NCBI GenBank assembly: GCA_030390025.1
Contig: CM059432.1
Location: 45,882,001-45,946,000, forward strand
Length of the DNA stretch: 64,000 nt
Origin: Squalus acanthias
Lineage: Eukaryota
Direction of reading: 5' to 3'
Under the pieces are notes generated by a model that saw nothing but the letters and a program-made list of their open reading frames with translations, did no database searches and was not told the origin of the DNA. A program made the translations under genes and the position numbers. Every line of letters begins with the position of its first letter. Position 1 is the stretch's first letter. Shown here piece by piece: positions 55,861-64,000 of the stretch.

Positions 55861-58590
55861 GGAGTTATAAGAACATAAGAACATAAGAAATAGGAGCAGG
55901 AGTAGGCCAATCGGCCCTTCGAGCCTGCTCCGCCATTCAATAAGATCATGGCTGATCTGATCATCACCTCAAATCTAAAGAACACAAGAAGTAGGAGCAG
56001 GACCCGGCCACTCAGCCCCTGGGCCCGCTATGCCACCCACAGGGCCTCGACCGATCCGAACTCAGCCTCATTTCCAATTTCCTGCCCGCTCCCCGTAACC
56101 CCTAATTCCCTTTACTTCTAGGAAACTGTCTATTTCTGTTTTAAATTTATTTAATGATGTAGCTTCCACAGCTTCCTGGGGCAGCAAATTCCACAGACCT
56201 ACTACCCTCTGAGTGAAGAAGTTTCTCCTCATCTCAGTTTTGAAAGAGCAGCCCCTTATTCTAAGATTATGCCCCCTAGTTCTAGTTTCACCCATCCTTG
56301 GGAACATCCTTACCGCATCCACCCGATCAAGCCCCTTCACAATCTTATATGTTTCAATAAGATCGCCTCTCATTCTTCTGAACTCCAATGAGTAGAGTCC
56401 CAATCTACTCAACCTCTTCTCGTATGTCCACTCCCTCATCCCGGGGATTAACCGAATGAACCTTCTTTGTACTGCCTCGAGAGCAAGTATGTCTTTTCTT
56501 AAGTATGGACACCAAAACTGTATGCAGTATTCCAGATGCGGTCTCACCAATACCTTATATAACTGCAGCAATACCTCCCTGTTTTTATAATCTATCCCCC
56601 TAGCAATAAAAGCCAACATTCCGTTGGCCTTCTTGATCACCTGCTGCACCTGCATACTAACTTTTTGATTTTCTTGCACTAGGACCCCCAGATCCCTTTG
56701 TACTGCAGTACTTTCCAGTTTCTCGCCATTAAGATAATAACTTGCTCTCTGATTTTTCCTGCCAAAGTGCATAACCTCACATTTTCCAATATTGTATTGC
56801 ATCTGCCAAATCTCTGCCCACTCACCCAGCTTGTCTATATCCCCTTGTAGGTTTTTTATGTCCTCCTCACTTTCTACTTTCCCTCCCATCTTTGTATCAT
56901 CTGCAAACTTTGATATGTTACACTCGGTCCCCTCCTCCAAATCGTTAATATAGATTGTAAAGAGTTGGGGACCCAGCACCGACCCCTGCGGAACACCACT
57001 GGCTACTGGTTGCCAGTCCGAGAATGAACCATTTATCCCAACTCTCTGCTTCCTGTTAGATAACCAATCCTCCACCCATGCCAGAATATTACCCCCAATC
57101 CAGTGATTTTTTATCTTGAGCAATAATCTTTTATGTGGCACCTTGTCGAATGCCTTCTGGAAGTCTAAATACACTACGTCCATTGGTTCCCCTTTATCCA
57201 CCCTGTACGTTATGTCCTCAAAGAACTCAAGCAAATTTGTCAGACATGATTTCCCCTTCATAAAGCCATGCTGACTTTGTCCTATCAAATTATGTTTATC
57301 TAAATGTTCCGTTACTGTCTCCTTAATAATAGACTCCAAAATTTTACCCACCACAGATGTTAGACTAACTGGTCTATAATTTCCAGCTTTCTGCCTACTA
57401 CCCTTTTTAAATAAGGGTGTTACATTAGCAGTTTTCCAATCTGCCGGGACCTTTGCTGATTCCAGGGAATTTTGGAAAATTATTACCAAAGCATCCACAA
57501 TCCCTATTGCCACTTCCCTCAAGACCCTAGGATGTAAGCCATCAGGTCCGGGGGATTTATCCGCCTTGATTCCCATTATTTTACTGAGTACCAATTCCTT
57601 AGTGATTTTAATCGTATTTAGCTCCTCCCCCCCCTAGAGCCCCCTGTTTGTCCAGTGTTGGGATATTCTTAGTGTCCTCTATCGTAAAGACTGAAACAAA
57701 ATATTTGTTCAGCATTTTTGCCATCTCCATGTTTCCCACCATTAATTTCCCGGTCTCATCCTCTAAGGGACCTACGTTTGCCTTAGCCACCCTTTTTCTT
57801 TTTATATAACTATAGAAACTCTTGCTATCTGTTTTTATATTTTTTGCTAATTTATTTTCATAATCTATCTTCCCTTTCTTAATCAATCCTTTAGTTACTT
57901 TTTGCTGTCTTTTGAAGACTTTCCAATCTTCTATCCTCCCACTAAGTTTGGCTACCTTATATGTCCTTGTTTTTAGTTGGATACTATCCTTAATTTCTTT
58001 ACTTAGCCACGGATGGCTGTCATTTCTTTTACACCCTTTTTTCCTCAGTGGAATATATATTTTTTGAAAGTTGTAAAATAACTCCTTAAATGAACACCAC
58101 TGCTCATGTACCGTCTTACCCTTTAATCTATTTTCCCAGTCCCCTTTAATCAATTCCGCTCTCATACCATCATAGTCTCCTTTATTCAAGCTCAGTACGC
58201 TTGTCTGAGAACCAACCTTCTCACCCTCTAATTGGATATGGAATTCAACCATGTTATGGTCACTCATTCCAAGAGGATCCTTAACTAGGACATTATTAAT
58301 TAATCCTGACTCATTACACAGGACCAGGTCCAAGGTTGCTTGCCCCCTTGTAGGATCAGTTACATACTGCTCAAGAAATCCATCCCTAATACACTCAATA
58401 AACTCTTCCTCAAGGCTGCCCTGCCCAATTTGATTTGTCCAGTTAATATGATAGTTAAAATCCCCCATAATTATAGCTGTTCCCTTATTACATGCCCCAA
58501 CTATTTCCTGATTAATACTTCTTCCAGCAGAGTTGCAACTATTAGGAGGCCTATATACTACTCCCACTAGTGTTTTTTTCCCTTTATTAT

Positions 58591-58784
58591 TGTGGTAACA
58601 CAATACAGCTTCCTGTGACTCGAACTTTATTGCATCACTTCCTGTGATTAGTCCAGGATAAATACTGGACTGAGCAGTTGGATCCTGGAGAGGCATAGAG
58701 TAAGACCTCTTTTGTATGTAGCACCTTTTTAGTTTTTTAAAGCTTACTTTAAGTTCACCACGCGTAAGGCTCATTCTTATGACA
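58591..58784 (+). repeat. 5' LTR
   Basis: TGTGGTAAC...TATGACA; differs from the 3' LTR at 3 positions by eye. Confidence 0.95.
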
Positions 58785-58862
58785 ATTTAATCAACTTTGA
58801 AAAACTTCGCACTCAAACTTTTTGGACGAACTCGGAACTAAGGATCCAGGGAATCACCCATC

Positions 58863-61800
58863 ATGGAAAACATCCTTAAACCATCGCGTCTTGACTTGGA
58901 CCCAAACACCCCAGCAGCCGGTAAGGTGTGGAAACACTGGTATCGCACGTTTGACAATTTTCTCGAATATTGCAAGGCTGATGATGACACAAAGTTGCGG
59001 ATACTCATCAACTGTGTCACTCCGAATGTATTTCAGTATGTTGAGGAATGGGGCAGTTATGAGGAGGCAATTCGGACGCTTAAAAGACTATATACTAAGA
59101 CACCGAATGAGGTCTATGCCAGACATCTACTAGCTACAGCCCAACAAGGGCCGGAGGAATCCATTGATAAATTCCTCCAAGAGCTTCGCAGACTTAGTAT
59201 GGACTGTAACTTTCAGGCGGCCTCAGCTGAGCTGTACCGTGAAGAAATGATCCGTGATGCTTTCATCTGCGGGCTTGCCTCCCCATTTATACGCCAGCGT
59301 CTACTGGAAAGTAAGACACTTGAGCTTCAGAGAGCTTATGACATGGCTTGCTCTCTAGATCTGGCAAAAAGAAATGCAGACCTTTATACAGTGCCCAGAC
59401 CTCGGTCTGCTGCCTTAACTACAGTCAGGCAATTTAAGAGGCCACAGGTGAACTCTATTAGGGAGGACTTTATCCCTGACGATCAATCTGATGACTTCAC
59501 TGATGAAGAGGATGATGACCCCACTGTGGCAGCCTCTTGGCAATCTAAGAAATGCTTCTTTTGTGGTGATGAGTTTCACCCTCGGAAATTCTGCCCTGCT
59601 CGCAATGCGTTTTGCAGTCATTGCAACAAAAAGGGTCATTTTGCAAAGGTTTGCCTATCAAGAGCCTCTACGAGGGCTTATCAAGCTAAGTCCTACCGAA
59701 CTGCCCCGGTAAGGGCCTATCAAGATGTTCCGGCTAAAATCTATCGTGCTTCCTCTCGGGTTTTCTCTCGAAGAAACACACCTAGAGTTTCAGCCACTCT
59801 TTGTGCAACGACACCAATTACAGCTGCTTGTCCTCAGAACCTATTCCATGCAGCTACAAAAGCATCAATTAATGGACATACTTTAGATGCCTTAATTGAC
59901 TCAGGTAGTACTGATAGTTTCATTAGGGAACAGATTGTTGCAGAGTTAAAGCTACATGTTTTCCCATCGGACCAGGCAATTGCAATGGCTCAGCCATCAC
60001 TTAATACCAGAATTTCTGGCTTTTGTATGGTTGAAATAACACTTAATGGTCGCAGGTATCCCTCCACCCGGCTTTCGGTGCTCAAGGACTTATGTAGTGA
60101 TCTTATCTTAGGGCTGGATTTTCAAAAGCAGCATAAGAAGCTCACCATTGAGTTCGGCGGATCCAAACCTGAACTCACTATTTCTAATATACGACCTCGA
60201 TTACCGTTCTGTGCATTGTCAGCAGCTTCACTGGATGAACCCTCACTGTTTACCAGTATCCCTCCTCGATGCAAACCGATTATAACAAAGTCACGACGTT
60301 TCAGTCAGGAAGACCAGTCTTTTATTGCGGCTGAGATTTCTCGGCTTTTAGCAGAGGATATCATCGAGCCTTGTTCGTCGCCATGGCGCGCCCAGGTCGT
60401 TATTGTTAAGAACCCTCTACAACCTCACAAGAAATGGCTGTGCATTGACTATTCACAGACCATCAATCAATATACGGACTTGGACGCATACCCATTGCCG
60501 CGCATCGATGATATGGTTAATAAACTGGCTGAGTACACGGTGTTCTCAACATATGATCTGAAAAGTGCCTATCATCAGGTACCCTTGAAGGTCTCAGACA
60601 AGCAGTATACGGCCTTTGAAGCCAATGGACGGCTGTATCAATTTCGTCGCCTCCCCTTTGGGGTCACTAATGGAGTGGCTGTCTTCCAGCGAGCAATGGA
60701 TGACCTGGTCAAACAGGAAGACTTGAAGGATACGTTTCCTTATCTGGACAATATTACTGTCGCAGGTCGCAATCAGCGGGAACATGACACCAATCTCCAA
60801 CGATTTTGGGATGCACTCCAGCACCGTAATTTGACATTAAATGCGGCTAAATCCATTGAGTCACAACCAACCATCAACATCCTTGGCTATTGTGTGGGCA
60901 ATGGCATCATTAAACCTGACCCTGAAAGGCTTCGCCCACTCCAAGAGCTCCCGCCACCTAAGAATCCAGCCTCCTTGCGCCGGGCCCTCGGCCTGTTTGC
61001 ATACTATGCTAAATGGATTCCTAACTTCTCAGACCGAATCCAACCTCTACTGAAGGCCAGCACATTCCCACTAGACACAGCGGCTGTTGCAGCCTTTAAC
61101 CTCCTGAAAAAACAGTTGGAGAAAGCGGCTCTTCACTCCATCGATGAGAGTCTTCCTTTTGTTGTTGAGTGTGATGCCTCGGAGGTGGCGATCTCGGCCA
61201 CTCTGAATCAGGAAGGTCGTCCGGTGGCATTTTTGTCTAGGACTTTTCAAGGGGCTGAGCTACATTATCCTCCAGTCGAGAAAGAAGCTACAGCCATCAT
61301 AGAGGCAGTACGGAAGTGGACTCATCTCCTAGCTCACCAGCACTTTACCTTAATCACGGACCAGCGATCGGTCGCCTTCATGCTCGATAATCGAAAACGG
61401 ACCAAAATTAAAAATAATAAAATCCAGCTTTGGCGGCTGGAATTGGCCTCTTTTGGTTACACCATCCACTATCGACCTGGCAAGGAGAATGTGGCTCCGG
61501 ATACCCTCACACGAGCATTCTGCTCCGCCATGGCACCCTCTACGCTAGTAGACATCCATGATGGGTTGTGTCATCTGGGCGTTACTCGCATGCTACACTT
61601 CGTGCGGTCCCGAAATCTCCCATTCTCTACCGGGGATGTAAAGAAGATGTGCTCGGACTGCAGAGTCTGTGCGGAATTGAAACCTCAGTTTTTCCGCCCC
61701 TCGGGTGGTATACTCATACAAGCGACCCAGCCAATGCAACGGCTTAGCATCGATTTTAAGGGGCCGTTGCCCTCTTCAACTCGCAACACTTATCTATTGA

Positions 61801-62819
61801 CCATGGTCGATGAGTATTCCCATTTTCCGTTTGCCTTTCCCTGCCCCAATATGCTGACGACCACGGTTATCAGCTGCCTTGAGCAGGTATTTGCTTTCTG
61901 TGGCATGGCATCCTATGTTCATTCGGATCGGGGCCCTTCTTTTATGTCAGGAGAACTCAAGGCCTATCTCTCGGAACGGGGTATTGCTGCCAGCAGAACG
62001 ACGCCTTATCATCCGGTCGGGAATGGGCAAGTCGAGCGTTTTAACGCTATCATCTGGAATGCGGTACGTCTGGCTTTGAGATCTCGGGGCCTACCCAACC
62101 AGCAATGGGAAGCAGTACTTCCAGACGCATTACACTCCACACGGTCCCTCCTTTCGACCGCCACAAATACGACGCCTCATGAACGGTTCTTCCGATTTCA
62201 GCGTCGCTCATCCTATGGGCTATCTCTCCCGTCGTGGCTGACTGCACCGGGACCAGTGCTACTCCGAAGATATGTCCGGGCGTCTAAGAATGACCCCCTG
62301 GTAGATGAGGTTGAGCTCACTGACGTCAACCCTACCTACGCCTATATTCGGTATCCTGACGGTCGGGAATCTACCGTGTCATTGCGGGATCTGGCTCCCT
62401 GCCCGCCGAAACATAGAGGGACACCAGGGGATGACATTGTACCAGGCACATCTCTGGGCTCGCCAGGTGCCTCTCATCACGATCTGGATCTGACGCCGAC
62501 TGGTACCTCACTCCAGCGTGCCGACCTGGGGCAGACTGACTATGAGCCCGTCGGGGCTCGCACGCACAGCCACGATCCACCCCGTACCATACGCTCGGAA
62601 ACGGATCTGCCACAGCCCTGCCCGACACCCGTTCGGGCACCAGTACACAGTCAGGATCGTCCTGACCCCTCACAGAGCGGGCTCTTTCACTCGGACTCTG
62701 GTCCACGGCCCGCGGCGGGTAAACGGGCTAGGGGCCCTCTACCGCTACGAGAACCCAAACGGGTGCGGCTCTCCCTCGTCCGGCGGCTACGAAATGGAGG
62801 GAGCATCCCGGCCTCCTAA
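58863..62819 (+). CDS. Gag-Pol polyprotein, 1318 aa (Gag, two CCHC knuckles, protease, RT, RNase H, integrase)
   Basis: Knuckles CFFCGDEFHPRKFC and CSHCNKKGHFAKVC; protease LIDSGS; RT DLKSAYHQ, LPFG, YLDN; RNase H CDAS...EKE...TDQ; integrase H-x4-H...CRVC, IDFKG, HSDRG, GQVERFN. The PR-RT-RH-IN order is the Ty3/Gypsy order. Confidence 0.97.
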   Translation: MENILKPSRLDLDPNTPAAGKVWKHWYRTFDNFLEYCKADDDTKLRILINCVTPNVFQYVEEWGSYEEAIRTLKRLYTKTPNEVYARHLLATAQQGPEESIDKFLQELRRLSMDCNFQAASAELYREEMIRDAFICGLASPFIRQRLLESKTLELQRAYDMACSLDLAKRNADLYTVPRPRSAALTTVRQFKRPQVNSIREDFIPDDQSDDFTDEEDDDPTVAASWQSKKCFFCGDEFHPRKFCPARNAFCSHCNKKGHFAKVCLSRASTRAYQAKSYRTAPVRAYQDVPAKIYRASSRVFSRRNTPRVSATLCATTPITAACPQNLFHAATKASINGHTLDALIDSGSTDSFIREQIVAELKLHVFPSDQAIAMAQPSLNTRISGFCMVEITLNGRRYPSTRLSVLKDLCSDLILGLDFQKQHKKLTIEFGGSKPELTISNIRPRLPFCALSAASLDEPSLFTSIPPRCKPIITKSRRFSQEDQSFIAAEISRLLAEDIIEPCSSPWRAQVVIVKNPLQPHKKWLCIDYSQTINQYTDLDAYPLPRIDDMVNKLAEYTVFSTYDLKSAYHQVPLKVSDKQYTAFEANGRLYQFRRLPFGVTNGVAVFQRAMDDLVKQEDLKDTFPYLDNITVAGRNQREHDTNLQRFWDALQHRNLTLNAAKSIESQPTINILGYCVGNGIIKPDPERLRPLQELPPPKNPASLRRALGLFAYYAKWIPNFSDRIQPLLKASTFPLDTAAVAAFNLLKKQLEKAALHSIDESLPFVVECDASEVAISATLNQEGRPVAFLSRTFQGAELHYPPVEKEATAIIEAVRKWTHLLAHQHFTLITDQRSVAFMLDNRKRTKIKNNKIQLWRLELASFGYTIHYRPGKENVAPDTLTRAFCSAMAPSTLVDIHDGLCHLGVTRMLHFVRSRNLPFSTGDVKKMCSDCRVCAELKPQFFRPSGGILIQATQPMQRLSIDFKGPLPSSTRNTYLLTMVDEYSHFPFAFPCPNMLTTTVISCLEQVFAFCGMASYVHSDRGPSFMSGELKAYLSERGIAASRTTPYHPVGNGQVERFNAIIWNAVRLALRSRGLPNQQWEAVLPDALHSTRSLLSTATNTTPHERFFRFQRRSSYGLSLPSWLTAPGPVLLRRYVRASKNDPLVDEVELTDVNPTYAYIRYPDGRESTVSLRDLAPCPPKHRGTPGDDIVPGTSLGSPGASHHDLDLTPTGTSLQRADLGQTDYEPVGARTHSHDPPRTIRSETDLPQPCPTPVRAPVHSQDRPDPSQSGLFHSDSGPRPAAGKRARGPLPLREPKRVRLSLVRRLRNGGSIPAS

Positions 62820-62837
62820 TCTTTTGGGGGGGGAGAA

Positions 62838-63031
62838 TGTGGTAACACAATACAGCTTCCTGTGACTCGAACTTTATTGCATCACTTCCTGTGATTAGTC
62901 CAGGATAAATACTGGACTGAGCAGTTGGATCCTGGAGAGGCATAGAGTAAGACCTCTTTTGTATGTAGCACCTTTTTAGTTGATTAAAGCTTACTTTAAG
63001 TTCACCACGCGTAAGGCTCATTCTTACGACA
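62838..63031 (+). repeat. 3' LTR
   Basis: TGTGGTAAC...TACGACA; contains ATTAAA. Confidence 0.95.
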
Positions 63032-64000
63032 ATTATTCCTTATCTCCACCCAAACTGTTTCATTATCCTGATCCTTTGACCCAAAATAATTTCTCTGTAA
63101 TACAGTGATTCCTTCCTTTATTAACATAGCTACCCCACCTCCTCTTCCTTCCTGTCTGTCCTTCCTGATTGTTAAATACCCTGGCATATTTAATTCCCAG
63201 TCGTTGTCACCCTGCAGCCATGTTTCTGTAATGGCCACAAGATCATACCCATACGTAGTTATTTGTACCGTCAATTCGTCTATTTTGTTACGAATGCTGC
63301 GTGCATTCAGATAAAGAACTTTTAAATATGTTTTGTGACAATTTATTCCTGCTTTTACCCCCTTTACTACTTTACCTTTATCTTTATATATTCTGTCCCT
63401 TCCTGACACGCTCTGGTTTTTAATTACCCCACTGCTACTTTGCTCTATTGCCTTCTCCGCTGACATTTTTATTTTTTGCTCTCTTGAAACCTCCCCCCCA
63501 CTAATTAGTTTAAAGCCTTCTCTACAGCCCTAGTTATTCGATTCGCCAGGACTCTGACTGAATGAATAATGACTGAACAATCACTGAAACTCAGTAAGAC
63601 ACTTCTCAATGTGCACTCAGATCAGTCCAATAAGGGGCACTTTTTGAAAAAGAGATTTCACTGTATGACAACACATTACCAGAAACTTCACATGGACATT
63701 GACTAAACCTTTCACGTGCCCACCCTTGTGTGTTGTTAGTTGGTATGCTTGCAGTGGAATGCGGGTGAGTGTGAAGGGTGGCTAGTGAGATGGGGAAGTG
63801 ATAAAGTAGATAGAGAGGGTTGGGTGGAGGTGTAAGGTAAGTTGGTGTCCTGGGGAGGTCTCTTCCACCCTTGGAAGGGAAGAGAACCTCCCTGCGTACT
63901 GTGACTCCCTTCATAAGCATATGGAGGGAGGCATTGGAGGGCACGGGTGCAAGAGTTCACCTTGGTGCAGTGAGTATCAGTGTTTTCAGCACCTCAATGC

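Follow-up and report, generated by a model that had tools for sequence, protein, structure and literature searches.

The Tf1/sushi chromoviruses, together with a single copia lineage of plants, are the elements that self-priming of reverse transcription has been described as characterising. Self-priming in Tf1, its pretzel structure and the Tf1/sushi group are treated in the accessible sections of PMC7175516, PMC5341516, PMC4600332 and PMC10085805, the last of which sets out the pretzel of Tf1 as three duplexes. Self-priming has also been predicted for moss Tcn1 and for the plant copia TAR lineage (Houba, Osr-1), from LTR/PBS complementarity alone as far as the accessible text of PMC6317226 goes. 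Here we describe a young Ty3/Gypsy element of a widespread animal clade that is quite probably primed by the RNA of its own LTR instead of a tRNA. With Tf1/Tf2, Tj1 and Tf1/sushi elements it shares an LTR stretch of about 11 nt complementary to the PBS, the lack of a tRNA and the Ty3/Gypsy domain order.

The window, by which we mean the whole analysed stretch of 64,000 nt, contains a complete Ty3/Gypsy LTR element at 58591-63031, with a polypurine tract and a 5-bp target duplication; all of its features lie on the plus strand. The two copies of the duplication, ATTAT, flank the element at 58586-58590 and 63032-63036. Between the 5' LTR (58591-58784, 194 bp, TG...CA) and the 3' LTR (62838-63031), which follows the polypurine tract at 62826-62837, a single gag-pol ORF of 1318 aa (58863-62819) encodes a Gag with a double zinc knuckle, a protease, an RT with the motif YLDN, an RNase H and an integrase, and no env is found in this ORF. 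The domain order is PR-RT-RH-IN, and the best PDB match of the protein is Ty3 Gag-Pol. YxDN replaces YxDD in 90 of the 120 listed homologues, and the term YLDN together with retrotransposon was not found in the literature searched; a member of this YxDN clade, the window family, has nonetheless recently spread widely. The insertion splits a minus-strand LINE, which we take to be CR1-like, within its endonuclease region (56068-58585 and 63037-63529, with endonuclease and RT matches).

The sequence-only reading of this DNA had reported a PBS without TGG and an 11-nt exact complement of it inside the 3' LTR, and both observations are confirmed. The 5' LTR is followed by A58785 and then, at the PBS position, by TTTAATCAACT (58786-58796); its reverse complement stands without a mismatch at 62978-62988. 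A match of 11 nt anchored in this way arises in 5 of 20,000 shuffled LTRs. This arm of the 3' LTR ends in ATTAAA, a candidate poly(A) signal, with which an overlap had been claimed. The two LTRs of the window copy mismatch at 3 of 194 sites (58735, 58736 and 58780), and their alignment bears out the claim that two of the three differences fall inside the pairing arm of the 5' LTR (58731-58741), the predicted primer. Eleven LTRs vary at the position of this 2-nt difference (58735-58736), and only one of them carries it; the contigs from runs X2, X6 and X13 show the family letters there. Judged from these sequences, the difference is private to the window copy or an assembly error. Directly behind the PBS lies a degenerate second copy of the PBS unit (58796-58806), to which the altered letters of the 5' arm are complementary, with 10 of 11 positions matching, and this suggests that the change arose by template switching on the adjoining inverted repeat. 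Folding predicts that this altered arm pairs 10 nt further downstream, and the window leader folds with a z of -0.45 as against -3.25 for a family-type copy, the latter forming the duplex; the 5' duplex of the window copy is thus predicted to be lost, and the copy may, as had been suggested, be disabled.

The junction of LTR end and PBS has 1,249 matches in the genome G000 (3.7 Gb). Among the first 100 of these junctions listed, 99 have an identical PBS, and the complementary arm is present in the 5' LTR of 29/29 other top copies. We fetched 20 further places in addition to the window and obtained 18 complete copies, 16 of which show a 5-bp target duplication. The family is very young, since LTR pairs without indels (n=16) differ by 0.5%. 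Compensated changes within G000, for which a single position was tested, were seen in none of the 3 PBS variants and in none of the 7 variants of the 5' LTR arm. Judged by spacing, head-to-tail tandem copies sharing an LTR occur at G000:C1:566449-575212 (4247 bp) and G000:C4:938041-942833 (4295 bp). The family also occurs at about 98-99% identity in runs X1, X5, X11 and X13, under several organism codes, which would reflect close host species or recent transfer.

Homologues about 46-67% identical were found, by source names, in crustaceans, a nematode, a cnidarian, a flatworm and a mollusc. Our scans yielded 80 metagenome loci and 13 genome-contig loci, and a Gag search added two further G000 families, the sisters L146 and L150; no relatives were found among viral contigs. 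Several loci, L111-L120, L122 and L123, are animal-type LTR retrotransposons in prokaryotic genome bins, pointing to host contamination of these MAGs. A Gag start or a leader was present in 37 loci, from which we removed 8 near-duplicates and L042, L054, L055 and L092, which have no usable leader, leaving 25 families. The covariation of LTR motif and PBS expected under self-priming held in these relatives: 20 of the 25 families have a PBS that pairs without mismatch over 10-18 nt with the LTR of that same family, with differing letters and 18 different PBS 11-mers among the pairing families. Mean pairing across the 25 families is 11.8 nt with the own LTR, 5.9 nt with swapped and 4.9 nt with shuffled LTRs, and the own LTR is strictly the best partner in 15. 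Permutations reached the observed own-LTR mean in 0 of 100,000 cases, a value that overstates independence because the families are related. The LTR end was picked at CA in 15 of the 25 families, which is partly circular, and was fixed independently by the 3' LTR in 10; the same choice of CA yields only 6-7 nt in non-pairing loci. Two families, L061 and L101, pair with one mismatch, and L075 pairs with its 3' LTR, all three being mismatched in the 5' LTR; L091 and L096 show no LTR/PBS complement. One paired change occurs within a family (L031 versus L040/L062) and fits a PBS that would be recopied from the primer. A PBS starting with TGG is found in 0 of the 25 families, whereas in the tRNA-type outgroups L120 and L123 the PBS begins with TGG and the own-LTR score is 4 nt. 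Since the PBS pairs with the own LTR and offers no tRNA docking site, the clade likely self-primes.

Among the 20 pairing families the duplex is offset from the LTR end by 1 nt in 18 and by 2 nt in 2, with loops of 23-77 nt. Its first two pairs are A-U in every family, and each of positions 3-10 shows 2-4 pair types. On the sequences compared, this fixed offset at the LTR edge is what the 3' end of a primer requires. The arm ends in AAA^GCCT or AAA^ACCT in 12 of the 20 families, and there is a tendency for a helix to start with the base after the arm (z -0.79 versus -0.01, p=0.001; swap p=0.02). In the window copy a small hairpin is predicted at 58742-58754, beginning directly 3' of the arm, with a predicted cut at 58741/58742 and weak cross-family support. 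A predicted stem-loop at the U5 end (58763-58781) is borderline across families (p=0.06). Covariation across families and the constant geometry speak strongly for the claim that the element self-primes; the complementarity on which it was built stands, but the proposed transcription start at AGTT finds less favour.

Another reading of the same duplex is that it solely conceals the 5' poly(A) signal, the PBS-side partner being present only beside the 5' LTR, and that some other primer is used. A canonical A(A/T)TAAA hexamer does close the arm in 12 of the 20 families, and the upstream TATA-like box would place the signal within the 5' transcript. Against this, the canonical signal is missing from 8 of the 20 arms, and in 2 of these it sits in the unpaired loop. 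Moreover, occlusion does not call for a duplex that stops within 1-2 nt of the LTR edge, and the duplex fills the sole position available to a primer. We consider this reading improbable. The earlier suggestion that the duplex masks the signal survives as a possible secondary role; it cannot be the common function, because the hexamer closes only those 12 arms.

The transcription start bears on how long a primer could be. In three G000 families that share little other LTR sequence, TATA-like boxes precede the arm by 73, 90 and 88 nt; the remaining 17 families show 1 weak site. In the window the box, with a putative promoter role, is at 58658-58664, within the loop that the 7-bp arms of an inverted repeat (58650-58671) enclose; such a box inside the loop of a short perfect inverted repeat is seen in the window family and in its sister L146. 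The usual spacing from TATA to start is 25-30 nt, so boxes at 73-90 nt would put the start about 45-60 nt upstream of the arm, and the upstream box argues against transcription starting at AGTT, as far as promoter motifs can tell. The TAGTT at the arm resembles an initiator (consensus in the accessible part of PMC3601003), so that either start, upstream or at the arm, is possible. In 8 runs, one of raw reads (0 reads) and the others of contigs, neither a transcript start or end nor a splice joint was found within the LTR, and a search for poly(A)-tailed retrocopies for mapping the 3' end gave 0 matches.

The primer might instead be the arm of the 3' LTR, with the RNA circularising, being cut after that arm and priming on its own PBS. 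Both LTR copies complement the PBS equally, and an upstream start would leave a long R ahead of the arm by which the jump could take place. The 5' arm, however, lies only 43 nt from the PBS and is predicted to fold onto it locally, a helix tends to begin directly after the arm, and the literature searched, in its accessible parts, holds no precedent; we regard priming from the 3' arm as unlikely.

We likewise see little likelihood that a piece from inside a nuclear or mitochondrial tRNA, or some other small RNA of the host, serves as primer, with the LTR arm acting as a competing switch. The opening letters of the PBS (TTTAA..) are partly conserved across phyla, as an external primer would also give, and half-tRNA priming is known in copia lineages (accessible part of PMC6317226). 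The 18 PBS variants nevertheless each follow their own LTR, not one shared sequence. A scan of the PBS against tRNAs, which the earlier reading had proposed, gave a best match of 5 nt in 7 host Lys/Cys tRNA sequences, a very incomplete set, and no Rfam match of note was found. Chance complementarity of AT-rich sequence, although 31 inverted pairs of at least 11 nt occur within 8 kb, is rejected by both the anchored shuffle and the swap permutation and is extremely improbable. A primer made by splicing was ruled out, as the genomic arm alone pairs over 10-18 nt and several arms have no AG.

Under the preferred reading, self-priming from the 5' LTR, the arm of the 5' LTR would fold onto the PBS and the RNA would be cut just 3' of the arm, usually at AAA^GCCT or AAA^ACCT, by the element's RNase H, by analogy with Tf1. 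The freed 3' end would then be extended through U5, and the strong-stop DNA would jump by way of the short segment that separates the cut from the poly(A) site, with the arm and the upstream LTR recopied afterwards from the 3' LTR. The 5' end of the RNA may sit about 45 nt upstream of the arm, which would make the primer longer than the 11 nt of Tf1, and some families would gain, as a by-product, concealment of the 5' poly(A) signal.

We placed the clade with RT-RH trees of 92 and 66 rows, built by a quick method with SH-aLRT support only. The chromovirus references were 28 chromodomain-bearing proteins, Mag-like and similar labels were given by motif, and the trees contain no named Tf1, sushi or Mag sequence. 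In both trees the clade has a support of 100 and a long stem (about 1.05 changes per site in one of them) and falls outside the Mag-like rows, and it also stands outside the chromodomain-bearing clade (SH-aLRT 99-100). In a 52-row tree, from which 14 rows were dropped for speed, it joins the Mag-like rows at SH-aLRT 92; across trees it is sister to them or unresolved, never nested. AU tests reject neither a sister position to the chromoviruses (p=0.49) nor a nested one (p=0.24), and the clade may thus be kin to the chromoviruses. The window ORF contains no chromodomain at E<=0.1, its last 139 aa match no Pfam family, and PF00385 is found in 0 of the 120 listed homologues; the non-chromoviral look first noted for the element holds in the best trees. 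The double zinc knuckle, present in the Gag of 111 of the 120 homologues listed, presumably links the clade to Mag. Profile matches in G000 comprised PF24626, which led to env-bearing retrovirus-like elements, 0 for PF03732 and 16 scattered for PF00385. L136-L142 and L145 are retrovirus-like G000 elements with a long ORF after the integrase, probably env.

If the proposed mechanism is true, a broad animal clade without a chromodomain self-primes, and escape from tRNA priming would be commoner than assumed. It would account for calls of "PBS not found" in annotation, and the clade would presumably lie beyond the reach of tRNA-fragment silencing at the PBS. With more than 1,000 near-identical copies, the primer, the start and the cut site are directly measurable from RNA. 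The literature searched (including the accessible parts of PMC5006619, PMC6934838, PMC3587641 and PMC13524379) gave no account of self-priming in a non-chromoviral animal Gypsy clade; a prior description is possible.

Compared with the animal lineages that lack a chromodomain and carry a double zinc knuckle, namely the Mag lineage (A, B and C clades; SURL) and the MolGy clades of molluscs, the present clade differs in not being nested in the Mag-like rows and in its RT, whose signature is WRAQ and, in most members, YxDN. Perhaps it corresponds to a MolGy clade that already has a name; the PBS is never mentioned in the accessible text of PMC6238403, which treats these clades. TAR belongs to another superfamily and Tcn1 is a chromovirus, and both are from plants, unlike the animal clade. 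In Tf1/sushi elements the first 11 nt of the RNA serve as primer. In the window family a start of the RNA at the arm is putative, and a TATA-like box precedes the arm by 73 nt. The duplex of the present clade spans 10-18 nt and closes in an A-rich, poly(A)-like hexamer. Furthermore, the clade carries no chromodomain and forms a separate clade in the best trees, and an arm 3' of the PBS like that of the Tf1 pretzel was not found (own 4.2 versus swap 4.5, p=0.85, in a crude test). The clade thus probably resembles Tf1 in priming and shows neither the chromodomain nor the pretzel of Tf1/sushi, and an independent origin is likely on this sequence comparison. More tentatively, and with the odds rather against it, self-priming may have arisen independently in this large animal Gypsy clade in a form unlike that of Tf1, with a primer internal to a longer leader (or to the 3' repeat) and a cut right after the poly(A) hexamer, such that one duplex would set the primer end, hide the 5' poly(A) signal and leave a very short repeat for transfer. 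The signal is real and conserved and most likely one of self-priming, a known mechanism with precedents in more than one lineage; in a non-chromoviral animal clade it is new to the literature searched.
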